Part shown: positions 1 through 12,538 of the stretch, in pieces
Position numbering within the stretch: the first letter of the stretch is position 1
Layout: each line of letters starts with the position of its first letter
Source of the DNA: Candidatus Limnocylindrales bacterium
Lineage (GTDB): Bacteria; Chloroflexota; Limnocylindria; Limnocylindrales; CSP1-4
Direction of reading: 5' to 3'
DNA: 64,000 bases
Assembly: GCA_036508755.1 (NCBI GenBank)
Contig: DATCGV010000044.1
Coordinates: 560-64,559 of the forward strand
The notes under the pieces: model-generated
Told to the model about the DNA's origin: nothing
Database searches by the model: none
The model's input: the letters and a program-made list of their open reading frames with translations, nothing else
Translations under genes and position numbers: made by a program

Positions 1-277
1 GTCCGTCAGCCCACGTCGGTTGGAGCGCGTAGCTGCCGACGAGCTGGATGTCGGTCAGCTGCGTCTGGGCCGCCATCAGCGTGGGGTTCGAGTCGAGCCA
101 GCCGGGGATGCCGGCCTCGCCCCGACAATAGGCACACGGGCACAGCCAGCGCATGGTGACGAAGTCGTAGCGCGACAGGTGACCGTCCGGCCACTCGAGC
201 TCGAGGACCGAGGCGGCGCGGTCGGCGTGGATGCGGACGGGGACGAGATACTCGCCGCCCGAGGTGAAGGAGCTCAT
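1..277 (-). CDS. DUF971 family protein, partial (C-terminus lies beyond the window start)
   Basis: Not in the ORF track. ATG at 277..275; manual translation gives MSSFTSGGEYLVPVRIHADRAASVLELEWPDGHLSRYDFVTMRWLCPCAYCRGE...VGSYALQPTWADG, matching the DUF971 signature (W.DGH...Y......LR..CPCA.C..E ... G.YAL...W.DG). Its ATG overlaps the TGA of the upstream gene (ATGA). Confidence 0.55.
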   Translation of the reverse strand, partial: MSSFTSGGEYLVPVRIHADRAASVLELEWPDGHLSRYDFVTMRWLCPCAYCRGEAGIPGWLDSNPTLMAAQTQLTDIQLVGSYALQPTWADG

Positions 278-1104
278 CGCAGCAATGGTGGCAGCCACAG
301 GTAATCGCGCACGGGCAGCGTCCTGGCGAGCTGTTGGAAGACCCAGATCCAGCCCAGCGCCGACTGGATGTCGGGTGTGTCGGCGCCCGGCCCGGCGTGG
401 CTCGCGCTGCTGGCCTTGGGCACGATCGTGACGTACTTTCCGTACCAGATTGTCTGGCCTGGCTCGACGTACGCGTCGAACTTGCGCGCGAGGTCCTGGC
501 TGCTGATCCAGGTCCCCGGACCCGGATCGAAATGCGCTCCGTTGAGCGTGCCAGTCGGCCAGAGCGGGCCGACGACCTCAACCTGTGTGACCGTGAAGTC
601 TGTCGTCGTGGCCGGGTCGGCAGTCGCCGTAAAGCCGGTCATGATCCACGCATGACGCCCGAAGTGAACGAGCAGGCCGACCGGCTTGCCCGTCTCGCGC
701 AGCTGCAGCGCAGCGTCGTGCAGGGCGCTCTGCATCGTCGAATCGATCGTCCAGCCGTAGTCGGAACCCGCGCCGTAGTGGACGAGCGCATCGGCCCAGC
801 CCTGCGGATCCGCGCCGCCGTCCTCGACCGGGTACTTGCTGTGCGCGGAGGCATAGGCGAGGTAGTTGAGCTGCCGGCTCTTCGAGTGATCGCGCGTGCC
901 GTCGATGAGGTTGAGCATGATCTGCACAGACGCGCCGACGCACGAAGCGTCGAGGAACTGGGTCGCGAAGGCGCCTGCGCGCCAGATGCTGTAGCGGCCG
1001 GTCCACGTCGCGGCGCCGGCCGTCCCGGCCGGCGCCGCGACGAGCGCGACGAGCACGAGGCACAGCACGACGACCGGCTTTCGGCCGGTCAGGAGCCTGA
1101 TCAC
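274..1104 (-). CDS. secreted protein with C39-like (papain-fold) cysteine peptidase domain
   Basis: N-terminal signal peptide/TM (VVVLCLVLVALVAAPAGTAGA); Cys in SCVGASVQIMLN and His in GRHAWIMTGF resemble peptidase_C39-like catalytic pair; GTG start at 1104; stop overlaps downstream DUF971 ATG. Confidence 0.45.
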   Translation of the reverse strand: MIRLLTGRKPVVVLCLVLVALVAAPAGTAGAATWTGRYSIWRAGAFATQFLDASCVGASVQIMLNLIDGTRDHSKSRQLNYLAYASAHSKYPVEDGGADPQGWADALVHYGAGSDYGWTIDSTMQSALHDAALQLRETGKPVGLLVHFGRHAWIMTGFTATADPATTTDFTVTQVEVVGPLWPTGTLNGAHFDPGPGTWISSQDLARKFDAYVEPGQTIWYGKYVTIVPKASSASHAGPGADTPDIQSALGWIWVFQQLARTLPVRDYLWLPPLLR

Positions 1105-1166
1105 GGCTCAACGTTAACCAATTCGCGCGCCACGAGCGCCCGCCGCAGTCGCATCATCGTCAGGTC

Positions 1167-2111
1167 ATGACCGAGCGAACCGCGGCGGCAATCGACGTCG
1201 GCAGCAACAGCGTCCATCTTCTCGTCGCGCGCGCCCGGCGCGCCGTGCGCCTCGGAACGCGCACGGACCTGATCGCGCTCGCCGACGAGAGCGAGCTGAT
1301 CGGCCTGGGCGATTCGGTTGACGCGGGCGGCAGCATCCCGCCCGGGCCGCTCGATCTCGTGGTGGCGGCGCTCGAGCGGCAGGTATCCGTGGCGCGCAGC
1401 GCCGGCGCGGAACGCATCGTCATCGTCGGCACCGAGCCGCTGCGCCGGGCTTCCAACACGAGCACGCTCATCCTCGCCGTCGAGCGCGGGCTGGGCGAGG
1501 AGCTGCGCGTGATCGACGTCCGACAGGAGGCCCAGCTGACGTTCGTCGGCGTGTGCGGCGGCACGAATCCTGACGAAGCGCTGGCGGTAGTCGACATCGG
1601 CGGTGGCTCGACCGAGGTCGCGATCCACGTGCCTGGACGAGAGCTCGAGGTAGTTCCCCTGCCGCTCGGTTCGGCGCGCCTGACGAACTCCCTCGTGCGC
1701 CACGATCCGCCGACGAGCGACGAGATCGCGTCGCTCATCAAGGCAGCCGTGAGCGTCGTTCACGACGCTGCGTGGCCCAAGAACGATGGGCCGCCCATCC
1801 GGCGGGCGATCTTCGTGGGCGGCACCGCGACCAACGTCGCGCGCCTGGGCCGCCTCGACCGCGCCCATCTCAACGAGGACCTGAACACGATCGGTCAGAT
1901 GCCCGCCGACACGGTCGTCGAGCACTTCGGAGTGCGGCCGCGCCGCGCTCGCCAGCTCGCGGCGGGCGTTGCGATCGTGTCGGCGCTGCTCGACCGCTTC
2001 CTGCTTGGTGTGGCCGACGTGAGCGAAGCCAGCCTGCGCGACGGCGCGATCATCGCCGCCCTGGCGCGCGGCCCGGACTGGCTCGCGGCAGTCGACGAGC
2101 TGACGAGCTGA
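1167..2111 (+). CDS. Ppx/GppA family phosphatase (short exopolyphosphatase/pppGpp phosphohydrolase type)
   Basis: N-terminal AAIDVGSNSVHLLVA and DIGGGSTE motifs typical of Ppx/GppA actin-fold phosphatases; ATG at 1167; 314 aa. Confidence 0.8.
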   Translation: MTERTAAAIDVGSNSVHLLVARARRAVRLGTRTDLIALADESELIGLGDSVDAGGSIPPGPLDLVVAALERQVSVARSAGAERIVIVGTEPLRRASNTSTLILAVERGLGEELRVIDVRQEAQLTFVGVCGGTNPDEALAVVDIGGGSTEVAIHVPGRELEVVPLPLGSARLTNSLVRHDPPTSDEIASLIKAAVSVVHDAAWPKNDGPPIRRAIFVGGTATNVARLGRLDRAHLNEDLNTIGQMPADTVVEHFGVRPRRARQLAAGVAIVSALLDRFLLGVADVSEASLRDGAIIAALARGPDWLAAVDELTS

Positions 2112-2128
2112 CGAGCCGACGGGCTGAT

Positions 2129-2413
2129 TCAGTCGCCCACCTGCGCGAGCCAGTCGCGCAGCGGCCCAAGCGCGGCCTTTTCGGCGTAATGACGGCGCAG
2201 CCGGCCCGTAGCCATGGTCTGGATCAGGCCCGCCTCGCGCAGCACCGTGAGGTGCTTCATGACCGCCCAGCGCGTGATCGAGCTCGCACGCGAGGTCAGT
2301 TGCGAGGTCGTGATGCCGGGCTGCGCGGCGATCGTTTCGAACAGGGCACGACGCGTCGGATCGGCTAGGGCAGCTAGCAGTTCGTCGATGTGAATGCTGC
2401 GCACAATCGTCAT
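2129..2413 (-). CDS. ArsR/SmtB family transcriptional regulator
   Basis: 94 aa; LADPTRRALFETI...TSQLTS...AVMKHLTVLREAGLI winged-HTH typical of ArsR family; ATG at 2413. Confidence 0.75.
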   Translation of the reverse strand: MTIVRSIHIDELLAALADPTRRALFETIAAQPGITTSQLTSRASSITRWAVMKHLTVLREAGLIQTMATGRLRRHYAEKAALGPLRDWLAQVGD

Positions 2414-2431
2414 GTGACGTTATGGTCACAT
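2412..2431. promoter_or_regulatory. perfect 7-6-7 inverted repeat ATGTGAC-gttatg-GTCACAT overlapping the ArsR start codon, in the 31-bp divergent gap to deoC; candidate ArsR-family operator
   Basis: Seen directly in sequence at 2412-2431; ArsR/SmtB regulators commonly bind imperfect 12-2-12-like palindromes overlapping their own promoter. Confidence 0.45.
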
Positions 2432-2444
2432 AGTTTGCGCTGAG

Positions 2445-3491
2445 TTGTCAACCGTTCAGGGCGCGCGCTCGCCTTGCGGACAGGTCGTGGCGTATGATCG
2501 GGTCGTGACGCGCATCATCGACGCACCCGACAAGTCCTCCTCGGAACGCCAGGCGAGCGCGCTCGTGCGCGCCTGGGAGGGTCGGGCCGACGGCATCCAG
2601 TCGATCGTCGAGCGTCTCGGCGGGGTCGACCAGGTGGGCATCGAGGAGCGCGTCGACAGCCTCAAGAAGCGATCGATCAAGAAGGAATCCAAGCTCTGGG
2701 CGCTCGACCTCGCGATCCGGATGATGGACCTGACGACGCTCGAGGGGAAGGACACCGAGGGCAAGGTGCGCGCGATGTGCGCCAAGGCGATCCGCCCTGA
2801 TCCATCAGATCCAACCATCCCGAGCGTCGCCGCAGTGTGCATCTATCCGGCGCTGATATCGGTCGCCAAGAGCGCCCTCGAGGGCTCGAATGTGAAGGTC
2901 GCCAGCGTCGCCACGGGCTTCCCGTCAGGCCAGACGTTCACCGACGTCAAGCTGCTCGAAACGCGCCAGGCGGTTGTCGCCGGCGCAGACGAGATCGACA
3001 TGGTCATCGATCGCGGCGCTTTCCTGCAGGGTGACTACCGCCACGTGTTCGATGAGATCGTCGCTGTCAAGGAAGCGTGCGGATCGGCTCACCTGAAAGT
3101 CATCCTCGAAACCGGCGAGCTCGAAACGTACGACAACGTCCGCCGTGCGAGCATCCTGGCGATGGCCGCCGGGGCGGACTTCATCAAGACCTCGACGGGC
3201 AAGGTCACCCCGGCGGCGACGATGCCGGTGATGCTCGTCATGCTCGAGGCGATCCGCGACTTCAACAGGCGGACCGGTCGGCTGGTCGGCATGAAGCCAG
3301 CTGGCGGCATCCGCACGGCCAAGGAAGCGATCCAGTTCCTGACGATCCTGTACGAGACGCTCGGTCCGCGCTGGATGACGCCCGATTTGTTCCGGTTCGG
3401 CGTGAGCAGCCTGCTCAACGATGTGCTGATGCAGATCCGCAAGGAGCGCACGGGCGCCTACCAGGGACCCGACTACTTCACGCTCGACTGA
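2445..3491 (+). CDS. deoC: deoxyribose-phosphate aldolase, long form with about 100 aa N-terminal extension
   Basis: Core DeoC features: MMDLTTLEG..., active-site FIKTSTGK (Schiff-base Lys) and AGGIRT; ORF start at 2445 is TTG, true start uncertain (alternative GTG near 2500). Confidence 0.75.
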   Translation: MSTVQGARSPCGQVVAYDRVVTRIIDAPDKSSSERQASALVRAWEGRADGIQSIVERLGGVDQVGIEERVDSLKKRSIKKESKLWALDLAIRMMDLTTLEGKDTEGKVRAMCAKAIRPDPSDPTIPSVAAVCIYPALISVAKSALEGSNVKVASVATGFPSGQTFTDVKLLETRQAVVAGADEIDMVIDRGAFLQGDYRHVFDEIVAVKEACGSAHLKVILETGELETYDNVRRASILAMAAGADFIKTSTGKVTPAATMPVMLVMLEAIRDFNRRTGRLVGMKPAGGIRTAKEAIQFLTILYETLGPRWMTPDLFRFGVSSLLNDVLMQIRKERTGAYQGPDYFTLD

Positions 3492-3530
3492 GTCGCCACC
3501 GCGGCGAGCCCGGAGGTAATCGGACCCCGC

Positions 3531-4070
3531 TCAGTCGGAGCGAAGCCTCGAATAGATGACCAGGTCGTGGTAGGCGCCGCCGCGGAACTGCGACCCGCGG
3601 TTGACGCCCTCGCGCGTGAAGCCGGCCTTCTCGAGGGCATGCTGCTCGGGCAGGTTGTCGATGTCCGTCTGCGCCTCGACTCGGTTGGCGTTGGTCGAGA
3701 CGAACAGCCAAGCGGCGAGCAGCCGTTGTGCGTCCGATCCGTAGCCGTGTCCGCGCGCCGCGGGCACGAGATCGATGCCGATGTTCCACGCGCGCGAATC
3801 GTCGGGCGGTCCGTAGTGCACTGCGCGCCATTGGACGGTGCCGACCGGCTCATGGTCGAGGCGCTCCACGATCAGCGTGCCGTTGTAGTCATTGCGCAGC
3901 GGCCCACGAGCGAGAACGTCGCGCGGCGTGCGGCCGATGGGCTGGCCGAAGTCGTTGAAGCCGCCGATGTCGCGCTGCTCGTTGAGCCAGTCGACCAGCT
4001 CAGCGTCGTTGAGGGTGAGGTCACGCAGCCGGACGAGCAGGCCCTCGACCGGCAGGCGAGCGTCAGTCAT
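3531..4070 (-). CDS. GNAT family N-acetyltransferase
   Basis: Acetyl-CoA binding-like region RGHGYGSDAQRLLAAWLF; ATG at 4070 overlaps the TGA of the upstream ketosynthase (ATGACTGA); the track start at 4097 would give a longer overlap. Confidence 0.7.
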   Translation of the reverse strand: MTDARLPVEGLLVRLRDLTLNDAELVDWLNEQRDIGGFNDFGQPIGRTPRDVLARGPLRNDYNGTLIVERLDHEPVGTVQWRAVHYGPPDDSRAWNIGIDLVPAARGHGYGSDAQRLLAAWLFVSTNANRVEAQTDIDNLPEQHALEKAGFTREGVNRGSQFRGGAYHDLVIYSRLRSD

Positions 4071-5331
4071 CGACGGCGGCAAAGGCCAGCGAGGCATTCA
4101 GGCCACCGAAGCCGAACGAGGTGGACAGCACGCCCCTGATCGTGCCCTCCAGCGGCACGGCGCGCAGGCCCGGCAAAGCGGCGGCTGCGCCGGGGTCGAC
4201 GTGCTCGAGGTTGACCGTCCCGGGTGCCCAGCCACGGTCGATGGCCAGGGCCGAGATGGCGGCCTCGATCGCGCCCGACGCACCGAGCGGGTGCCCGTAA
4301 TAGGCCTTTGTGCCACTGACCGGGACGGTTTGCGCGCGCGCGCCAAGGGCACGGGCGATGGCGCGCGCCTCGACCTCGTCGCCGAGCGGTGTCGACGACG
4401 CGTGGGCATTGACGTAGTCGATCTGCACCGCCTTCATGCGGCCGTCGGCGAGGGCGAGGCGCGCTGCGCGCGCGGCCTGGCGGCCATCGGGCCGCGGCTG
4501 AACCATGTGAAAGGCATCGCTCGTCGCCGCGTACCCGCGCAGCTCGGCGTAGGGCCGCGCGCCACGCCTCCGCGCGACAGGTTCGGCCTCGAGGACGAGG
4601 AGCGCGGCGCCCTCGCCCATGACGAAGCCGTCCCGGTCGGCATCGAACGGCCGCGCCGCGCTCGCGGGGGCGTCGTTCCGGCCCGCGCTCAGGGCGCGAA
4701 TGATGTCGAAGGCTCCAAATGCAAGCGGGCTGAGGGGCACTTCCACGCCTCCCGCGAGCGCGGCGTCCGCGCTTCCAGAGCGGATCAGCCTGAGTGCCTC
4801 GCCGATCGCCACTGCCCCGGCGGCGCACGAGTTGGCCGTCGACAGGATCGGGCCATGGAGTCCGAGAGCAATGCCCACGTTGGCCGGCGCGGCGCCGCCG
4901 AAGACGGCGAGGGCAAGGTTGGGCGCCACGGACCTGATGCCACGGGCGATGTAGCGCTCGTGCTGCTGCTCGGCATACGCGATCCCGCCCAGGGCCGACC
5001 CGACGTAGACCGCGAAGCGGTCGGCACGGGCGGCTCCGCGCTGGCCAACCTCGAGGCCCGCGTCGAGCAGTGCCAGCCGCCCGGCCGCGAGCGCGAACTG
5101 GCTGAAGCGGTCCGTCTGCCGGGCGGCGCGGGCGTCCATGAAGTCGGTCGGCTCGAAATCGTCGATCTGGGCGGCGACCTGCGAGCGGAACGGAGCTGGA
5201 TCGAAGCGGTCGATGCGCTTGACCGCAGACCTGCCGGCGTGCAGGCCGGCTAGGAAGGCGTCGCGACCGATGCCGATCGGCGTGACGACTCCGATGCCCG
5301 TGATCCACACGCGGCGCGACCTGTCGCTCAC
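4063..5331 (-). CDS. beta-ketoacyl-ACP synthase I/II family condensing enzyme (FabF-like)
   Basis: RRVWITGIGVVTPIG N-terminus; catalytic Cys (LSTANSCAAGAVAIGEA), His (VNAHASSTPLGD) and His (YYGHPLGASG) triad present; C-terminal FGFGGLNASL. The first 136 aa of the track ORF look non-coding. Chosen start is GTG at 5331 in a GTGA overlap with the SRPBCC stop. Confidence 0.8.
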   Translation of the reverse strand: MSDRSRRVWITGIGVVTPIGIGRDAFLAGLHAGRSAVKRIDRFDPAPFRSQVAAQIDDFEPTDFMDARAARQTDRFSQFALAAGRLALLDAGLEVGQRGAARADRFAVYVGSALGGIAYAEQQHERYIARGIRSVAPNLALAVFGGAAPANVGIALGLHGPILSTANSCAAGAVAIGEALRLIRSGSADAALAGGVEVPLSPLAFGAFDIIRALSAGRNDAPASAARPFDADRDGFVMGEGAALLVLEAEPVARRRGARPYAELRGYAATSDAFHMVQPRPDGRQAARAARLALADGRMKAVQIDYVNAHASSTPLGDEVEARAIARALGARAQTVPVSGTKAYYGHPLGASGAIEAAISALAIDRGWAPGTVNLEHVDPGAAAALPGLRAVPLEGTIRGVLSTSFGFGGLNASLAFAAVDD

Positions 5332-5813
5332 GTCGCGCTCGTCCCGGTCGGTGTCTGCTCGGCGATCTGCTTGAACCTTGCCAGCGTGCGGCCGGCGATG
5401 GGTCGTACGAACCAGCGATCGGCGATGCGCGGGAACAGCTCGTCGCCGAGGAGCGGGAGGTGGCGCGTGAAGTCGTGCACGATCGCCACGTTCGAGCCGT
5501 GCAGGCCGGCAGGCGTGATGTGCCAGGTCACGTCCATGCCCCGTGTCGGACCGCAGGTGTGGACGAAGCGCAGACGAAGGTCGGCTGGGTCCGAAGCGTC
5601 GGCCCAGGTTCGTGCCCGCCAGCTCACGGGAACTCCCAGCGGCCCGAATCGGCGCGTCGCTTTCATCCTCGCTTCTGTCTCGTCGCCGTTGCGTGACAGG
5701 ACGGTCACCTGTCGGTAATGCGGCAGCAGCTCGGGCCATCGGCCGACGTCCCGGGCGAGCTCGAAGACTCGCTCGCCCGGCGCGTCGACGCTGATCTCAA
5801 TCCGCGAGCGCAA
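5328..5813 (-). CDS. SRPBCC superfamily protein (polyketide cyclase/dehydrase-like, Polyketide_cyc2-type)
   Basis: IEISVDAPGERVFELARDVGRWPELLPHYRQVTV...WHITPAG... pattern typical of SRPBCC/polyketide_cyc2; probable TTG start at 5813 (MRSRIEISV) overlapping the NUDIX stop; start uncertain. Confidence 0.6.
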   Translation of the reverse strand: MRSRIEISVDAPGERVFELARDVGRWPELLPHYRQVTVLSRNGDETEARMKATRRFGPLGVPVSWRARTWADASDPADLRLRFVHTCGPTRGMDVTWHITPAGLHGSNVAIVHDFTRHLPLLGDELFPRIADRWFVRPIAGRTLARFKQIAEQTPTGTSAT

Positions 5814-6234
5814 CTTCTGACGCTTCCAGGTATTCGAGCGTTGGTGCCAGGAGCGGCACGATGGGCAGCTCGCGCACCTCCGACAGCGGTACCCACGCCG
5901 CCATGTCGGTCGACTCCTCGATCTCGTGACGGATCGAGCCGCCCGTGATGCGCACGAGGTAGACGATCTGGATGCCGTGGAATGGGCCCCAGCCGCGCTC
6001 GGGTAGCGGGCCGCGAGTCCATGAGCCGACAAACGCGAGGCGCTCGATCTCGCCGGTCAGCCCCGTCTCCTCCTCGAGCTCCCGGCGCACGGCAAGAGCA
6101 GGGTCCTCACCGAAGTGGATGCCACCGCCGGGCAGGGTCCACATACCGACCGACGGGTAGCCCGGCGCGATGCGCACCATCAGGAGCTGCTGAGCCTCGT
6201 CGACGACTACCGCGTAGGCCGCGATGCGCGTCAT
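5797..6234 (-). CDS. NUDIX hydrolase
   Basis: Nudix box GGGIHFGEDPALAVRRELEEETGL (GX5EX7REUXEEXGU); ATG at 6234 verified; 145 aa. Confidence 0.75.
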   Translation of the reverse strand: MTRIAAYAVVVDEAQQLLMVRIAPGYPSVGMWTLPGGGIHFGEDPALAVRRELEEETGLTGEIERLAFVGSWTRGPLPERGWGPFHGIQIVYLVRITGGSIRHEIEESTDMAAWVPLSEVRELPIVPLLAPTLEYLEASEVALAD

Positions 6235-6257
6235 CGGCGCCAGTTCGGGCTGGTCGC

Positions 6258-7484
6258 TCACGGTGCGAGGACTCGGGCGAGGAAACGTGGGTCGAGCGCC
6301 TTGCTCGCCGGCGCCTGGTCGGCGAGCACGGCCGTCAGCTGCTGGCGCAGGTCGACGCGCCGTTCGAGTCGGCGCAGCGCGTAATCGAGAACGACTGGCT
6401 TGGCGATGAAAGCCTGCAGCACGAGCGAGAACACGTTCTTGCTCCGAAAACGCGATCGAACCCGACGATCGTAGACCGCCAACGCGTTCCGGTCTGTGGA
6501 CAGCCAGCGGTCGATCGCTTCGGCCGCAAGCGCCGCGGTCACCAGCGCCCGATGGAGGCCTTCTCCGGTGAGCGGGTCGATGAACTCGATAGCGTCGCCG
6601 ACGAGCAGCCAGCCGTGGCCTGCGGCACGAGTCACGTGATGCTCCAGCCGGCCGGCGACCTGTGCTTCGTCCGTCCTTGGCGCCGTCGACCAGCGATGTG
6701 CCTGCGACGCGGCGGCCATCACCTCGTCGACGACCGGTTCGACGCCGCCCTGAAGACGCTCCGTGGGCACGACGATGCCGACGTTGACACGGTCGCCCGG
6801 AACCGGCGCCAGGCCGACGTACCACCCGGCGCCGAGCACGAACGTGCCCGTCATCTGCACTCCCTGTGGCGCCGCGTCCATGTCGCGGACGTGGAAGGTG
6901 ATGCCGGCTCGACCGAGCCAGCTGCGCTCGCTTGCTACGCCCGCGGCACGAGCCACGCGAGATCCGCGGCCATCGGCGCCAACAACGACGCGTGCCTGGA
7001 TCAGTTCGTCGGGCGGCGCCTCACCGCCAGTGGCCGTCGATGCGATGACGAGTTGGTGTGAGTTGCGGCCAGAGCCCAACACCACCTCGCGCACCACACA
7101 TTCGCGGTGAACCTCCGCGCCGGCACGGCCAGCGTGCTCGAGCAGCTCTTGGTCGAGCCGCGTCCGATCAAAACCGCACGCGAAGCCGGCGCGGTACTCG
7201 AGGTTGCAGACCTGCCCGCGCGCCGAACGGAGTTCCATCGCGGAGATCGGGCGGTGCAGATCCGCGACCAGGTCGCGGCCCAGGCCGAGCGCGATCAGTC
7301 GCGAGCGGACGAGGGGAGAGGCGAAGACGCCGCACGCCCGCCAGCGCGGTTTGGCGTGGCGCTCGAGGATTGCCACCCGATAACCGAGCCGCGCGAGATG
7401 GGTCGCTGTCGCCGCGCCGGCCGGGCCGCCGCCCACGATGGCGACATCGACTTCGTCAGCCACCTGCCTGTTGCTCGGGGACAA
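6258..7484 (-). CDS. FAD-dependent oxidoreductase, geranylgeranyl-reductase-like family
   Basis: DVAIVGGGPAGAATATHLARLGYRVAILER dinucleotide-binding motif, GADGRGS and GDAIEFIDPLTGEG motifs; start TTG at 7484 or GTG at 7463 (GTGGCTGA overlap with methyltransferase stop). Confidence 0.7.
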   Translation of the reverse strand: MSPSNRQVADEVDVAIVGGGPAGAATATHLARLGYRVAILERHAKPRWRACGVFASPLVRSRLIALGLGRDLVADLHRPISAMELRSARGQVCNLEYRAGFACGFDRTRLDQELLEHAGRAGAEVHRECVVREVVLGSGRNSHQLVIASTATGGEAPPDELIQARVVVGADGRGSRVARAAGVASERSWLGRAGITFHVRDMDAAPQGVQMTGTFVLGAGWYVGLAPVPGDRVNVGIVVPTERLQGGVEPVVDEVMAAASQAHRWSTAPRTDEAQVAGRLEHHVTRAAGHGWLLVGDAIEFIDPLTGEGLHRALVTAALAAEAIDRWLSTDRNALAVYDRRVRSRFRSKNVFSLVLQAFIAKPVVLDYALRRLERRVDLRQQLTAVLADQAPASKALDPRFLARVLAP

Positions 7485-8136
7485 AGACGAGCGCGTAGCG
7501 GTAACCCGGCCGCGTTCCGTATCGGGCGACCGGCCGCAGCCCGGCCTGCTGCGCCATGCGCACGAGTTCCTTCTCGGTATATGCCCGGCGCACGGACAGT
7601 GGCGCGTCGTGGCGCGTGTACTGGTTGCGCGTTGCGATCCGCGTCAGCAACCACGCGCCGGCCCACCAGCGCCAGCCTCGGTCGAGGTCATTGATCACGA
7701 CCGCCTGTCGACAGACGCGGCGCATGTGGCTCAGGAATGTGACGGCGGCCGACGGCTCGAGATGGTGAATGACCAACGAAGCGTGAACCACGTCGAACGA
7801 GGCGCTGCTCTCGTCGGGTAGCGCACCCTCGCGAACGACGATCCGGCCGCGACCCTCGACGCGCATGGCTGCCGCGACGATCTCGGGCCGAATGTCAGTA
7901 GCCGTGATCTCGCGACCGTCGCGCGCAAGTCGGAGCGGAATATCGGCGCCGCCCGTGCCAACGTCGAGGATGCTCAGCGCGAAGCTGTTCAGCGCCAGCG
8001 GAGCGACCGCGCGCTCCGACAGATCCGCGCCGCCGAGCCAGCGATTTATGCGTGCCAGGTCGCGCAGGTTGCCGGCGAGAAGCTGTTCGTCGAGCCGTCC
8101 GTCGAGAAGCTCATGCCCTCCTTCAAGTCGTCGCAT
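7456..8136 (-). CDS. class I SAM-dependent methyltransferase
   Basis: LDVGTGGADIP (motif I) and FDVVHASLVIHH; ATG at 8136 verified. Confidence 0.7.
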   Translation of the reverse strand: MRRLEGGHELLDGRLDEQLLAGNLRDLARINRWLGGADLSERAVAPLALNSFALSILDVGTGGADIPLRLARDGREITATDIRPEIVAAAMRVEGRGRIVVREGALPDESSASFDVVHASLVIHHLEPSAAVTFLSHMRRVCRQAVVINDLDRGWRWWAGAWLLTRIATRNQYTRHDAPLSVRRAYTEKELVRMAQQAGLRPVARYGTRPGYRYALVFVPEQQAGG

Positions 8137-8163
8137 CGGTGAACTCTAGTCGCTTAGTGCAAC

Positions 8164-8184
8164 AAGTGACGCTTCGGTCACATA
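8164..8184. promoter_or_regulatory. inverted repeat AAGTGAC-gcttcg-GTCACATA in the divergent promoter region between the methyltransferase operon and the aldehyde dehydrogenase operon; same half-sites as the ArsR-proximal palindrome at 2412-2431
   Basis: Seen directly in sequence; shares GTGAC-N6-GTCACATA with the 2412-2431 site. Confidence 0.4.
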
Positions 8185-8225
8185 ATGAGTGGCGCTTTGG
8201 GATCACCGGGTGTAGTGTTGGCCCG

Positions 8226-9797
8226 ATGGCCGCCCGCAAAGACTCGACCGGTAGTCGCGAACCCTCGTCGGCGCTCGCTCGGCGCACATCGCCGGACGTC
8301 GGTCGGGGAACACAGTCGCCCAACAGCTGGGCACTTGGCGACGGCCAGCAGATCCCGTGGGAGTACGCGCCGGCGCCGGAGTCGCGCGATGTCGTCCAGC
8401 TCAAGTCGCGTTACGGGCTGTTCATCGGCGGCAAGGAGGTCGCACCGCGCAGCGGGCAGTGGTTCACGACGGTCGATCCATCGACGGAGGAGCCGCTCGC
8501 GGAGATCGCGCGCGCGAGCGTTGCGGACGTCGATCAGGCCGTCACCGTCGCCCGGCGCGCGTTCAAACGGGAGTGGGGCACGCTGCGCGGCAGCGAGCGC
8601 GCCAAGTACCTGTTCCGCATCGCGCGCATCCTCCAGGAACGCAGCCGTGAGTTTGCCGTGCTCGAGTCGCTCGACGGCGGCAAACCGATCAAGGAGTCGC
8701 GCGACGTGGACGTGCCGCTCGCCGCGGCACACTTCTGGTACTACGCGGGCTGGGCGGACAAGCTCGAGTACGCCTTCCCGAACCGCGATCCGCAGCCGCT
8801 CGGCGTCTGTGCGCAGGTCATCCCGTGGAACTTCCCGCTGCTCATGCTCGCCTGGAAGATCGCGCCGGCGCTCGCCGCTGGCAACACGGTCGTGCTCAAG
8901 CCGGCCAGCTCGACCCCGTTGAGCGCGCTCTTCTTCGCCGACGTGTGCCGCCAGGCAGACCTGCCGCCCGGTGTCGTCAACATCATCACCGGGCCGGGCG
9001 AGATAGGCCTCGCCCTCGTCAAGCATCCCGATGTCGACAAGGTCGCCTTCACCGGCTCGACGTCCGTGGGCAAGGAGATCGGCCGTGCAGTCGCGGGCAC
9101 CGACAAGGCGCTGACGCTCGAGCTGGGCGGCAAGGCGGCCAACATCGTCTTCGACGACGCGCCCATCGACCAGGCCATCGAGGGCGTGGTCAACGGCATC
9201 TTCTTCAACCAGGGCGAGGTGTGCTGCGCGGGAAGTCGCCTCTTCGTCCAGGAGTCGATCGCCGATTCGTTCGTCGAACGGCTGAAGGACCGACTGTCCA
9301 CCCTGCGCGTGGGCGACCCGCTGGACAAGAACACCGACGTCGGCGCGATCAACAACGCCGCCCAGCTGGCCAAGATCGAGGAGTTGGTGGAAGCGGGGAT
9401 CGCGGAGGGCGCCGACATGTACCAGCCGGCGTGCGAGCTCCCCGCGCGGGGATGGTTCTTCCGACCGACGCTGTTCACCAACGTCGCACAGTCGAGCCGC
9501 ATCGCCCAGGAAGAGATTTTCGGGCCGGTGCTGTCCGTCTTGACTTTCCGCACGCCGGCCGAAGCGCTCGAGAAAGCCAACAACACGGCGTACGGCCTTT
9601 CGGCCGGGGTCTGGACCGAAAAGGGCAGCCGCATCCTGGACATGGTCAGCAAGCTCCGCGCCGGCGTCGTCTGGGCGAATACGTTCAACCGCTTCGACCC
9701 GACCTCGCCGTTCGGTGGCTACAAGGAGTCGGGCTTCGGACGCGAGGGCGGGCTGCACGGCCTGCTGGCCTACCTGGATCTCGGAGCTGGTCACTGA
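8226..9797 (+). CDS. aldehyde dehydrogenase family protein (NAD(P)+ dependent)
   Basis: ELGGKAANIVFDDAP and catalytic FFNQGEVCCAGSRLFV (Cys) motifs; KPASSTPLSALF; probable ATG at 8226 (MAARKD...); the longer track ORF from 8052 would overlap the divergent methyltransferase. Confidence 0.8.
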   Translation: MAARKDSTGSREPSSALARRTSPDVGRGTQSPNSWALGDGQQIPWEYAPAPESRDVVQLKSRYGLFIGGKEVAPRSGQWFTTVDPSTEEPLAEIARASVADVDQAVTVARRAFKREWGTLRGSERAKYLFRIARILQERSREFAVLESLDGGKPIKESRDVDVPLAAAHFWYYAGWADKLEYAFPNRDPQPLGVCAQVIPWNFPLLMLAWKIAPALAAGNTVVLKPASSTPLSALFFADVCRQADLPPGVVNIITGPGEIGLALVKHPDVDKVAFTGSTSVGKEIGRAVAGTDKALTLELGGKAANIVFDDAPIDQAIEGVVNGIFFNQGEVCCAGSRLFVQESIADSFVERLKDRLSTLRVGDPLDKNTDVGAINNAAQLAKIEELVEAGIAEGADMYQPACELPARGWFFRPTLFTNVAQSSRIAQEEIFGPVLSVLTFRTPAEALEKANNTAYGLSAGVWTEKGSRILDMVSKLRAGVVWANTFNRFDPTSPFGGYKESGFGREGGLHGLLAYLDLGAGH

Positions 9798-10294
9798 TGT
9801 CTGATTCGCCGCGCCGCGCCTTCGTCTCGCGCCGGTCGGACGGCGAGCACCTGTGGTCGCTCGGCGGCCATTTCACGACGAAGCTGTCCGGGGAGCAGAG
9901 CGACGGTGGGTTCGCGCTGGTTGAAGCGATCGCGTTCCGTTCGACCGAGCCGCCCCTGCACATCCACACCCGCGAAGACGAGGCCTGGTACGTGCTCGAC
10001 GGCCAGATGACGCTCTACGTTGGTGATGAGTCGTTCGTCGTGCCGAGTGGAACGTTCGCCTTCGCGCCGCGCGGGCAGGCGCACGCGTTCACCGTCGACA
10101 TCGAACCGACCCGCGTGCTCGTGTTCGCGACACCGGCCGGGTTTGAGCATTTCGCCCAGGAGCTGGGCACTCCCGCAACGGGCGAGACGCCACCAGCCGA
10201 TCTGTCCGTACCGTCGCCCGACGAGCTCGGCCCGATCGGGGAGCGCTACGGCATCCAGGTCGTCGGGCCGCCGGTCAGGTTGCGCAATGGCTGA
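9797..10294 (+). CDS. cupin domain protein
   Basis: PLHIHTREDEAWYVLDGQM...APRGQAHAF two-motif cupin signature (G(X)5HXH(X)3,4E(X)6G ... PXGXXHXXXN-like); ATG overlaps the ALDH stop (TGATG). Confidence 0.65.
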   Translation: MSDSPRRAFVSRRSDGEHLWSLGGHFTTKLSGEQSDGGFALVEAIAFRSTEPPLHIHTREDEAWYVLDGQMTLYVGDESFVVPSGTFAFAPRGQAHAFTVDIEPTRVLVFATPAGFEHFAQELGTPATGETPPADLSVPSPDELGPIGERYGIQVVGPPVRLRNG

Positions 10295-11213
10295 GCGGCA
10301 CCCCAAGACGGTCATCGCAGATCCACTGGCACCGGCGCGCATCCCTGTGCGCAAGACGTACAAGCTGTACGTCGGCGGGCAATTCCCGCGCTCGGAGTCC
10401 GGGCGCAGCTACATCGTCCGTGCCGCAGACGGGACGCCGCTCGTCAACGCCGTGCGCTCGTCTCGGAAAGATGTGCGCGACGCGGTGCGCACGGCGCGCG
10501 GGGCCGTGGCGGGTTGGTCGGGCAAGACGGCGATGAACCGCGGCCAGGTCCTGTACCGCGTGGCTGAGCTGATGGAAGGGCGCCGCGCGCAGTTCGTCGA
10601 AGAGGTCACCGCGGCCGAAGGGCTGTCGCCTGCCGACGCCACCGCCCAGGTTGACCGAGCGATAGATCGCTGGGTCTGGTACGCCGGTTGGGCCGACAAG
10701 ATCAGCCAGGTGCTGGGAACGGTCAACCCCGTCGCCGCCCCGTACTTCAACTTCAGCATCCCGGAGCCGACCGGGGTCGTGGGTGTCGTCGCGCCAGAAT
10801 CGTCGTCACTTCTGGGACTCATCTCGCGCGTCGCGCCGGTCGTCGTCAGTGGCAACGCCGCGGTCGTGCTCGCGTCGGAGTCACGGCCACTGCCGGCCGT
10901 GACGCTGGGCGAAGTGCTCGCCACGTCGGACGTTCCTGCCGGCGTCATCAACATCTTGACCGGCCTGCGCAAAGAGCTCGTGCCCACCCTCGCGGCGCAC
11001 ATGGATGTCAACGCGATCGACACGTGGGGCGTGCCGCGCGACATGCGTGCGCAGGTCGAGACCAGTGCCATCGAGAACGTCAAACGCGTCACTCGCCCGC
11101 CGCGTGGCGTCGATGACCGCTACGACTGGCTGGATGACCGCCGCGCGCAGCGGCCGGAGTGGATCGCCGCGTACCTCGAGATCAAGACGGTCTGGCACCC
11201 CATAGGGATGTGA
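10287..11213 (+). CDS. aldehyde dehydrogenase-like protein truncated after the NAD-binding domain (catalytic domain absent)
   Basis: N-terminal ALDH fold (KLYVGGQF..., VVSGNAAVVLASE..., GVINILTG, ...KRVTRP aligned to ALDH ...KRVTLELGGK) but the ORF ends about 40 aa later with no catalytic Cys/Glu region; ATG at 10287 overlaps the cupin stop (ATGGCTGA). Confidence 0.55.
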   Translation: MAERHPKTVIADPLAPARIPVRKTYKLYVGGQFPRSESGRSYIVRAADGTPLVNAVRSSRKDVRDAVRTARGAVAGWSGKTAMNRGQVLYRVAELMEGRRAQFVEEVTAAEGLSPADATAQVDRAIDRWVWYAGWADKISQVLGTVNPVAAPYFNFSIPEPTGVVGVVAPESSSLLGLISRVAPVVVSGNAAVVLASESRPLPAVTLGEVLATSDVPAGVINILTGLRKELVPTLAAHMDVNAIDTWGVPRDMRAQVETSAIENVKRVTRPPRGVDDRYDWLDDRRAQRPEWIAAYLEIKTVWHPIGM

Positions 11214-11866
11214 CCAGAAGCCAAGATATTCGGCCTCGACGCTGGTATCAGAGGCCGTCGGGCACCACGCCCAGCGAGCGACGCTGGCTGGTCGCAACCG
11301 GCGCGGCCGCGCTCGCTCTTTTCGTGGCGCTCGCAGTCTGGGCACATGACGTTGTCACGCCGGCATGGGAGCTGGACCTCGTCAACTTCGCGCATCTACA
11401 GCCGAACCTGGCGGGAGACGTCCTGAATGGCATCAACACGCTGGGCAACCCGGTCAACTGGATCGTGCTGCTCGCCGTGCTGGCCATCGCGGTCGGCCTC
11501 CTGCGCGGGACTCGGGCCGGCGTGTTCGTCGGCGCCACCTATGCGGTTGACTTCGTGGCCACGCTGACCAAGTACTACGTCCAGCGCGGCCGACCCGACA
11601 CGGAGGCGACTCATGCGCTCTTCGGCGTCGATAGCTACGGATTCCCGAGCGGGCATACGGCGCGCGCGGCGGCGCTCGCAGGAGCTCTGGTCTGGATCTT
11701 CGTACCGGCGCGCTGGCGGCTGCCATTGGCGATCGTCAGCGCCCTTGTCGGCGGCCTGATGATGGGCTACGCGCGCGTCGCGTTCGGCGTTCACTTCCCG
11801 ACTGACACGCTTGGCGGACTGCTGCTGGGCATTTGCTGGTTCGCCCTCAGCGCAGCGCTCGTCTGA
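11159..11866 (+). CDS. PAP2 family phosphatase (membrane)
   Basis: Three PAP2 motifs: KYYVQRGRPD (KX6RP), PSGHTARAAA (PSGH), YARVAFGVHFPTD (SRX5HX3D-like); start uncertain (55-nt overlap with the upstream gene if 11159). Confidence 0.7.
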   Translation: MDRRVPRDQDGLAPHRDVTRSQDIRPRRWYQRPSGTTPSERRWLVATGAAALALFVALAVWAHDVVTPAWELDLVNFAHLQPNLAGDVLNGINTLGNPVNWIVLLAVLAIAVGLLRGTRAGVFVGATYAVDFVATLTKYYVQRGRPDTEATHALFGVDSYGFPSGHTARAAALAGALVWIFVPARWRLPLAIVSALVGGLMMGYARVAFGVHFPTDTLGGLLLGICWFALSAALV

Positions 11867-11890
11867 TGAGCCGGGTCTAGACTGGCGCGC

Positions 11891-12538
11891 GTGACCCACG
11901 CTGCCGCGGTGCTGCGCCGCGCGCTTCTGCCCGCGTTCCTGATGGCCGTCGCTTTTGCGCTCGGCCACCAGATCACCTACGTCGTGGAATACGGCTCGAA
12001 CGCGGGCAGCGCGCTTGCGCGATCCGGCCACGACCTCGACTGGACGCTCGCCGTCGCGTCGATCGCCCTGCTCTCGGTCGCGCTGGTGGGGCTTGCCGTG
12101 CGCGAGCTGCGTCGCCTGTCGCGCCAGGCTCGCGGCGTGGCAGACGCCCGCAGTCGGGGCTCGCCGCTCACGGCGCTCGTCGCTGACACTGTCCCGCTCG
12201 CGCTGGCCGTCCTCGTCGTCTCGGTGGTCAGCTTCGTCGTTGTCGAGAACCTGGAATACGCAGCCGCCGGACTTGCCTCGCCCGGCTTGACCCTGGTCTT
12301 CTCTGCCGAGCACCAGGCAACGCTCATCATCTTCGAGCTCGTCTCGCTCGCGGTCGCCCTTGTTGCCGCGCTGTATCGCTGGCGACGCGACATCCTCGTC
12401 GAGTTGATCGAGCTGGCGCAGGGGTTGCGGATGCACGGCAGACCGCTCCTCGGGTCGCGGCCGATCGAGCTGACGCTGCCAGCCAGCTCCATCGTCCGCG
12501 CCCGTCCACCCGGCAGGGCCCCGCCTCTTCCAGCCTGA
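11891..12538 (+). CDS. hypothetical membrane protein
   Basis: Multiple hydrophobic helices (AFLMAVAFALGH..., LAVASIALLSVALVGLAV..., VPLALAVLVVSVVSFVVV...); same strand as neighbours; no recognisable family. Confidence 0.4.
   Translation: MTHAAAVLRRALLPAFLMAVAFALGHQITYVVEYGSNAGSALARSGHDLDWTLAVASIALLSVALVGLAVRELRRLSRQARGVADARSRGSPLTALVADTVPLALAVLVVSVVSFVVVENLEYAAAGLASPGLTLVFSAEHQATLIIFELVSLAVALVAALYRWRRDILVELIELAQGLRMHGRPLLGSRPIELTLPASSIVRARPPGRAPPLPA

Follow-up and report, generated by a model that had tools for sequence, protein, structure and literature searches.

A conserved GTGAC-N6-GTCAC palindrome and an adjacent ArsR-like regulator gene in Candidatus Limnocylindrales

ArsR/SmtB repressors such as SmtB, CzrA, CadC and ArsR are winged-helix proteins whose genes lie beside their targets, which serve metal efflux or sequestration, and whose palindromic operators, of the 12-2-12 type, are placed on their own promoters. 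We analysed a stretch of 64,000 nucleotides (nt), here called the window, from the uncultured soil organism Candidatus Limnocylindrales bacterium (Chloroflexota, class Limnocylindria; assembly GCA_036508755.1, contig DATCGV010000044.1, positions 560-64,559), in which the palindrome GTGAC-N6-GTCAC occurs three times, the first copy adjoining a gene for an ArsR-like protein of 94 amino acids (aa). It is likely, in our judgement, that the three palindromes are operators for a dimer of this adjacent, cysteine-free protein of ArsR/SmtB fold. The locus shares with the known repressors the winged-helix fold, the location of the gene beside its putative targets and a palindromic putative operator on the regulator's own promoter. 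In contrast, there are no conserved Cys and no a3N/a5 ligand set, the palindrome is a compact 5(6)-6(4)-5(6) one instead of 12-2-12, and the putative targets are catabolic or biosynthetic genes.

The same fold is found in NolR, SrnR, HlyU and BigR/SqrR, which have non-metal functions and were matched by Foldseek (7p6f SrnR, 4omy NolR, 3pqj BigR, 4k2e HlyU and 6o8o SqrR), but identity to them was just 15-26% and their operators and regulons are unrelated. BigR/SqrR and HlyU sense via cysteines, which the 94-aa protein lacks. The closest solved relatives were the short HTH_20 proteins 3f6o, 3f6v and 2oqg of Rhodococcus sp. RHA1 (E value 2e-7, 28-31% identity, template modelling (TM) score 0.83-0.87); their entries give no function, operator or effector, so that no functional transfer could be made. 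A functional analogy, and only that, is offered by the DeoR systems: the E. coli deo operon has three DeoR operators with looping, and the effector of B. subtilis DeoR is deoxyribose 5-phosphate. The likeness would lie in deoxyribose catabolism being repressed from several palindromic operators set apart from each other, with release by a pathway intermediate, whereas DeoR belongs to a family with a sugar-phosphate-binding domain and has no homology to the 94-aa protein, and here deoC, the gene for deoxyribose-phosphate aldolase, is the least certain target. A literature search on ArsR/deoC/aldehyde dehydrogenase (ALDH) palindromes, on GTGAC/GTCAC motifs with ArsR and on Limnocylindria regulators found nothing relevant and, to our knowledge, no transcription factor of the Limnocylindria has been characterised.

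The palindrome and the regulator

A pattern search of the window located three exact copies of the palindrome (unstranded), listed here with the regulator gene.

Site 1, 2414-2429: core GTGAC-N6-GTCAC, GTGACGTTATGGTCAC
Site 2, 8166-8181: core GTGACGCTTCGGTCAC, in the divergent gap
Site 3, 5693-5708: exact copy GTGACAGGACGGTCAC, within the SRPBCC gene, codons 36-41 (V-T-V-L-S, minus strand)
Regulator gene, 2129-2413, minus strand: 94-aa HTH_20/ArsR-like protein (PF12840)

Site 1 can be extended to ATGTGAC-N6-GTCACAT, with 7-bp arms (2412-2431, ATGTGACgttatgGTCACAT), and its core abuts the CAT at 2411-2413, which is the minus-strand ATG of the regulator's open reading frame. With its flanks, site 2 reads AAGTGACgcttcgGTCACATA (8164-8184) and is placed in the gap of 89 bp between the start of a methyltransferase gene (8136, minus strand) and the ATG of the aldehyde dehydrogenase gene ALDH1 at 8226. 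Sites 1 and 2 are alike in their half-sites, 6-bp spacing and right flank ACATA, and also in the G that follows GTGAC and the G that precedes GTCAC.

A first-pass annotation of this DNA had described sites 1 and 2, and their positions, half-sites, spacing, ACATA flank and 89-bp gap were all re-found in the sequence, as was the overlap of site 1 with the regulator start, where 2412-2431 overlaps the CAT and the core directly adjoins it. It had counted two copies, both of which are real, and had overlooked the third at 5693-5708. Its view that such a repeated match is unlikely by chance agreed with our count of three exact copies: 100 dinucleotide shuffles gave an expectation of 0.09 +/- 0.29, and none of them (0/100) reached three or more. 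With up to one mismatch allowed there were nine matches against 3.1 +/- 1.8 expected, and the six non-exact ones (unstranded, at 179, 23761, 31595, 33899, 51794 and 61403) were near chance level. One of them, GTGGCcggacgGTCAC in the orientation of the locus (window 179-194), recurs at L001:12204 and L008:12225 in related loci, which are cited by L numbers throughout, inside a GBBH-like_N gene; this recurrence is probably coding conservation rather than a site.

The 94-aa protein matched PF12840 (HTH_20) with an E value of 6.4e-10 and 39.3 bits (cut-off 27), as a winged helix-turn-helix protein, and stayed below the NCBIfam cut-offs for metalloregulators, with 42.7 vs 55 bits for NF033788 (HTH_metalloreg), 33 vs 150 for CmtR and 19.6 vs 155 for BigR. 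Its AlphaFold2 model (predicted local distance difference test score, pLDDT, 91.9) had the topology a1-a2-a3-aR-b1-b2-a5. The top Foldseek matches were ArsR-family proteins, with a probability of 1.00 and TM scores of 0.80-0.87 to 3f6o, 2oqg, 6j05 and 7p6f, and by structure the uncharacterised Rhodococcus RHA1 ArsR-like proteins came first, followed by ArsR, SrnR and NolR. The window protein lacks Cys, and no conserved one was seen among 31 orthologues and 38 homologues; a metal-ligand set of Cys, His, Asp or Glu at a3N, a5 or an equivalent place was absent from the protein and its relatives, and the conserved His sit in the recognition helix and the wing. The fold, the lack of Cys and the metalloregulator scores below cut-off together indicate a structural member of the ArsR/SmtB family that is not a recognisable metal sensor. 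Three regions contained clusters of invariant residues: TRR in a1/a2, RW.V.KH in the recognition helix and GR.RRHY in the wing; the helix (T/S)RW(A/G)V(M/I)KH and the wing GR.RRHY were essentially invariant while overall identity dropped to 47%.

The conservation of the sites was examined in 33 non-redundant related loci (486 kb), gathered from the contigs of regulator homologues and by scanning GTDB genomes and, with ALDH1, metagenomes. Every named record among them was from Chloroflexota, mostly labelled Candidatus Limnocylindrales, and the gene order was conserved. As a control, ALDH1 was used to collect 75 loci (L038-L112) of other lineages that retain deoC and ALDH1, 643 kb in all and matched in G+C (68.5%). 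Site 1 stood directly before the regulator gene in all 31 loci bearing that gene (25 exact, six with one mismatch). Site 2 was present upstream of ALDH1 in 23 of the 25 loci that include this region, the exceptions being L032, which has no site, and L037, where ALDH1 comes directly after deoC, and 16 loci had site 3, located either at the NUDIX/SRPBCC junction or past it. Sixty-three of the 66 exact copies in the related set fell at these three homologous positions and only three elsewhere, in ppx of L007, at L034:4464-4479 and at L026:7384-7399. The copies of L034 and L026 coincide with homologous G-D-H-x-V-T-V codons in a large gene situated between GNAT and deoC, and may be either extra operators or a coding by-product. 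The control loci held one exact copy and no regulator homologue; in the 38 of them with at least 600 nt upstream of deoC, the best match to the motif there had at least two mismatches, and these loci too were devoid of a regulator homologue.

When symmetrised, the 69 distinct sites gave the consensus A-n-GTGAC-c-N4-g-GTCAC-n-T, the ten core bases being essentially invariant. It describes a symmetrical inverted repeat whose half-sites are centred 11 bp from each other, extended by symmetric flanks (A at -2 and T at +2) and by the inner C/G, which fits the expectation for a two-fold symmetric dimer.

Two metagenome contigs, L041 and L043, carry an ALDH1 of about 80% identity and keep the methyltransferase operon, which in L041 (L041:337-423) is divergent from ALDH1 over an 86-bp gap. 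The palindrome was absent before ALDH1 and at the methyltransferase promoter of both, and no regulator homologue was found on either contig; L043 had a single exact copy elsewhere, at 11795. These contigs may come from a sister lineage without the regulator.

Promoter layout at sites 1 and 2

Promoter boxes were derived solely from cross-locus conservation. Gene identities in the window were obtained with Pfam and NCBIfam profiles and gene-start checks. The genes and putative boxes concerned are the following.

deoC, 2505-3491, plus strand: deoxyribose-phosphate aldolase, 328 aa from GTG 2505 (TIGR00126, 197 bits, cut-off 117), transcribed divergently from the regulator gene
Methyltransferase gene, 7456-8136, minus strand: ATG at 8136 (Pfam/NCBIfam)
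ALDH1, 8226-9797, plus strand: ATG 8226, 523 aa like its orthologues (Pfam Aldedh, 541 bits)
Putative regulator -35 box TTGACA, 2446-2451, minus strand: 16 nt upstream of site 1
deoC -10-like box TATGAT, 2493-2498, plus strand: 6 nt before GTG 2505, TAnnnT kept in relatives
Putative methyltransferase-operon -10 box TAGAGT, 8143-8148, minus strand: 6 nt before ATG 8136
Putative ALDH1 -10 box TAGTGT (within GGTGTAGTGT), 8213-8218, plus strand: 7 nt before ATG 8226, leaderless type

TTGAC was found 15-16 nt before site 1 in 25 of the 31 loci and 18 nt before it in one more, and in all 26 of these TTGAC-bearing loci position 8 of site 1, in the direction of the gene, was a T, which was not so at sites 2 and 3. 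This suggests that positions 3-8 (GACnnT) contribute the A and the T to a -10 hexamer with a spacing of 17-18 nt; in the window, the -10-like GACCAT lies inside site 1. The regulator ATG was 0-2 nt past site 1 in most loci, implying a leaderless mRNA whose -10 box and start would be covered by the operator. L015-L018 had a different layout, with site 1 still between -35-like and -10-like boxes. As far as sequence can tell, the operator is placed on the regulator's own promoter, and this layout, the classical one, points to autorepression: a dimer on (A)nGTGACc-N4-gGTCACn(T) would overlap the core promoter (TTGACA, 16 nt, GACCAT) and so would shut off its own gene.

At ALDH1, nearly all loci had GGTGTAnnnT 5-9 nt ahead of the start, and its TAnnnT box began 30-34 nt past site 2 in 17 of 22 loci. 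Site 2 would thus span about -59 to -44 relative to ALDH1, with its centre near -51.5, and 8 bp downstream of it a conserved aGTGGCg block occupies the -35 position. The layout was retained in L035 and L036, where the methyltransferase operon is not adjacent, suggesting that site 2 belongs first to ALDH1. On the opposite strand, TAGAGT starts 17 nt past site 2 in the window, L001 and L004, a spacing at which site 2 would cover the -35 position of the methyltransferase operon; in other loci this distance was 5 to 43 nt and not conserved. Through site 2, the 94-aa protein would gate the ALDH1-cupin-ALDH operon and, in the window's genome, the divergent methyltransferase operon as well.

A TAnnnT box 5-9 nt before the start, with no Shine-Dalgarno-like stretch, was seen for deoC, the methyltransferase gene and ALDH1 (2493-2507; 8143-8136, minus strand; 8210-8228; L001-L037), an indication that many mRNAs of this Limnocylindria lineage lack a leader.

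The presence of site 1 before the gene in every regulator-bearing locus, a recognition helix as invariant as the half-sites and the joint absence of both, one exact copy of the motif apart, from the 75 control loci make the 94-aa protein the best candidate binder. On these sequence comparisons, the first-pass proposal of a single regulator, most simply the adjacent ArsR-family protein, gained support. It had also placed both divergent operons and deoC under this control. For the ALDH operon the conserved distance between site and promoter agrees with the proposal, and for the methyltransferase operon, where spacing is not conserved, control is plausible in the window. Direct control of deoC through site 1 was not borne out by the geometry: 63 nt separate the site from the deoC -10 box downstream, the distance ranges over 44-64 nt in relatives without keeping to one helical phase, and the interval contains the -35 box of the regulator.

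The genes themselves suggest another kind of link. In 53 of the 75 control loci deoC immediately preceded ALDH1, both being on one strand. In L037, from the motif-bearing lineage, the regulator and site 1 are followed by a contiguous deoC-ALDH1 operon (L037:1668-2660); in the window, a six-gene operon separates the two genes and ALDH1 has its own putative operator. From this adjacency in the control loci and L037, deoC and ALDH1 seem to form one pathway unit, presumably leading from deoxyribose 5-phosphate through acetaldehyde to acetate, as judged from gene context. Such a unit supports the regulator belonging to the deoC/ALDH system despite the lack of operator overlap at the deoC promoter. 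The protein would most likely act as a repressor released by a small molecule and, since deoC and ALDH1 are among the neighbouring genes, deoxyribose 5-phosphate or acetaldehyde would be the obvious effector candidates.

Several observations weigh against three operators controlled by the 94-aa protein. It has no recognisable sensor site. The site-1 half-site next to the gene is mismatched in L001, L004, L005, L006, L013 and L014, where A or C replaces the first G (ATCAC/CTCAC), and these six loci hold the regulators most similar to that of the window (67-89% identity); the window's own site 1 is perfect, and in those six genomes the mismatch could make autorepression weaker. Motif and regulator occur together, but all their carriers are in one class, so that phylogeny is a confounder here. 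A scan of both intergenic regions for consensus sigma-70 promoters and terminators found no site, hence the reliance on conservation for the boxes; the regulator promoter would have been missed because its -10 part, GACCAT, is non-canonical. Lastly, a site at -51.5 clears the ALDH1 core promoter, so that simple occlusion does not account for repression there, and activation from this position is possible.

Site 3 and the rival explanations

Site 3 lies in the second of two neighbouring genes identified with Pfam/NCBIfam.

NUDIX gene, 5797-6234, minus strand
SRPBCC/polyketide-cyclase-like gene (Coq10/RatA-like), 5328-5813, minus strand

Read in frame with SRPBCC, site 3 is GTG ACN NNN NNN TCA C. 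Its half-sites include the third positions of the Val (GTG) and Ser (TCA) codons, neither of which ever varied, and the Ser codon ends in A despite a genome G+C of about 68%. The spacer, made up of the Thr third position and two middle codons, varied, as did the residues (V/I/A; L/Q/R/M), and SRPBCC orthologues from loci without the site had R, G or A where this Ser stands. L008, L015, L016 and L018 have no SRPBCC gene, yet site 3 persists in them immediately behind NUDIX; in L008, GTGAC includes the TGA stop of NUDIX, and the ATG of the following gene is in the spacer. The invariant synonymous bases, the varying spacer residues and the retention without SRPBCC indicate that the constraint is on DNA and not on protein. 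It is therefore very unlikely that site 3, let alone the finding as a whole, is due to coding conservation or chance, a reading favoured by the position of site 3 in a reading frame (V-T-V-L-S) and by the extra copies of L034 and L026, which are perhaps coding by-products; sites 1 and 2 are intergenic. Taken as a third binding point inside the operon, 2.5 kb from site 2, site 3 could serve as a roadblock or as a loop anchor.

An internal promoter at site 3 was rejected, no TTGAC-type box being seen by eye at a fixed upstream distance: in the window the 18 nt before site 3 are conserved SRPBCC codons (L-P-H-Y-R-Q), and in L008 a TTGACT is 19 nt upstream, versus 15-16 nt at site 1. The gene that follows site 3 in L008 (116 aa) showed no similarity to SRPBCC and was rejected as a remnant of it.

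The other explanations concern what the palindromes bind, if anything. They could be operators of a factor encoded elsewhere, a global CRP/FNR-like or other dimeric regulator, with the ArsR-like gene merely one of its targets; we think this unlikely. The CRP/FNR box consensus is TGTGA-N6-TCACA, and the best of our sites do contain TGTGA and TCACA, while the position of site 2, about -51.5, would be suitable for an activator. However, these elements are 8 bp apart and not 6 at all 69 sites (GTG-N10-CAC vs GTG-N8-CAC), giving TGTGA-N8-TCACA, and the GTGAC/GTCAC core has a C and a G that CRP boxes do not need; the CRP-box reading was rejected on this spacing, its register being off by 2 bp. An unlinked factor of any kind is also hard to reconcile with a site that coincides in all 31 loci with the ArsR-like gene's core promoter, the matching invariance of that protein's DNA-reading helix, the rarity of exact copies away from the three canonical places in 486 kb and the lack of any other regulator gene consistently linked in the related loci. 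That the halves are instead direct repeats (GTnAC-N6-GTnAC) bound by a response regulator of the OmpR/PhoB type, GlnR or PhoP for instance, is scarcely credible. Actinobacterial GlnR boxes are GTnAC at an 11-bp period, which both halves fit, and such a regulator would suit the neighbouring phosphate and polyphosphate genes (ppk, CHAD, Trans_reg_C and pstSCAB in orthologous loci), but GTGAC is followed by GTCAC in the 69 distinct sites, with mirror-symmetric flanks and inner bases, as in an inverted repeat, and there is no site at the ppk or pst promoters of the related loci. The GlnR/PhoP reading was rejected on half-site orientation.

A role as RNA hairpins in attenuation, processing or stability, rather than as protein-binding DNA, is equally hard to credit. 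Each palindrome can fold into a hairpin of 5-8 bp (-6 to -9 kcal/mol), and site 3 is certainly transcribed. Against this, no compensatory change was seen in the 69 sites and the six one-mismatch variants break a pair uncompensated; the loop sequences vary freely while the outer flanks are symmetric, a trait of double-stranded DNA, and no Rfam match was found in window 1-12000. Moreover, sites 1 and 2 are probably untranscribed, as they lie upstream of the putative leaderless starts.

Gene neighbourhood and biological meaning

The remaining features of the locus are listed below (Pfam/NCBIfam, except the operon, which was delimited by domain matches and synteny).

ppx, 1167-2111, plus strand
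GNAT gene, 3531-4097, minus strand
FabF-like ketoacyl synthase gene, 4063-5331, minus strand
FAD oxidoreductase gene (GG-reductase/UbiH-like flavoprotein), 6258-7484, minus strand
Six-gene methyltransferase-to-GNAT operon, 3531-8136, minus strand
Cupin gene, 9797-10294, plus strand
Short ALDH-like gene, 10287-11213, plus strand

Sites 2 and 3 bracket and interrupt the run of genes of the six-gene operon. This operon is conserved; L008, L015, L016 and L018 retain NUDIX and GNAT only. The order ALDH1-cupin-short ALDH-like gene was identical in orthologous loci and constitutes the putative target operon (8226-11213). The locus adjoins phosphate/polyphosphate genes, namely ppx in the window and, in the relatives L001-L009 (11-20 kb), ppk, CYTH-CHAD, a Trans_reg_C response regulator and pstSCAB. 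No palindrome was found at the window's ppx or at the ppk, CYTH-CHAD, Trans_reg_C and pstSCAB genes of the relatives.

A further-reaching interpretation would make the cysteine-free ArsR-fold protein a dedicated regulator of deoxyribose/acetaldehyde catabolism in Limnocylindria, with three operators, one of them intragenic, and with the -51.5 site activating ALDH1. We consider it rather doubtful; if true, it would describe a dual-mode, metabolite-sensing ArsR member without a known sensor site. What is well supported by the comparison of loci is a previously undescribed local regulon of a kind already known, in which a predicted non-metal ArsR-family repressor would be autoregulated through a palindromic operator. 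For the ArsR family this would add one further non-metal member tied to carbon metabolism, leaving ideas on its mode of action unchanged. In this lineage, the widespread deoC-ALDH operon is split and ALDH1 bears its own copy of the putative operator. For the Limnocylindria, which are uncultured and abundant in soil and freshwater, the locus offers a testable candidate pair of regulator and operator, with a clear consensus and three defined putative targets.

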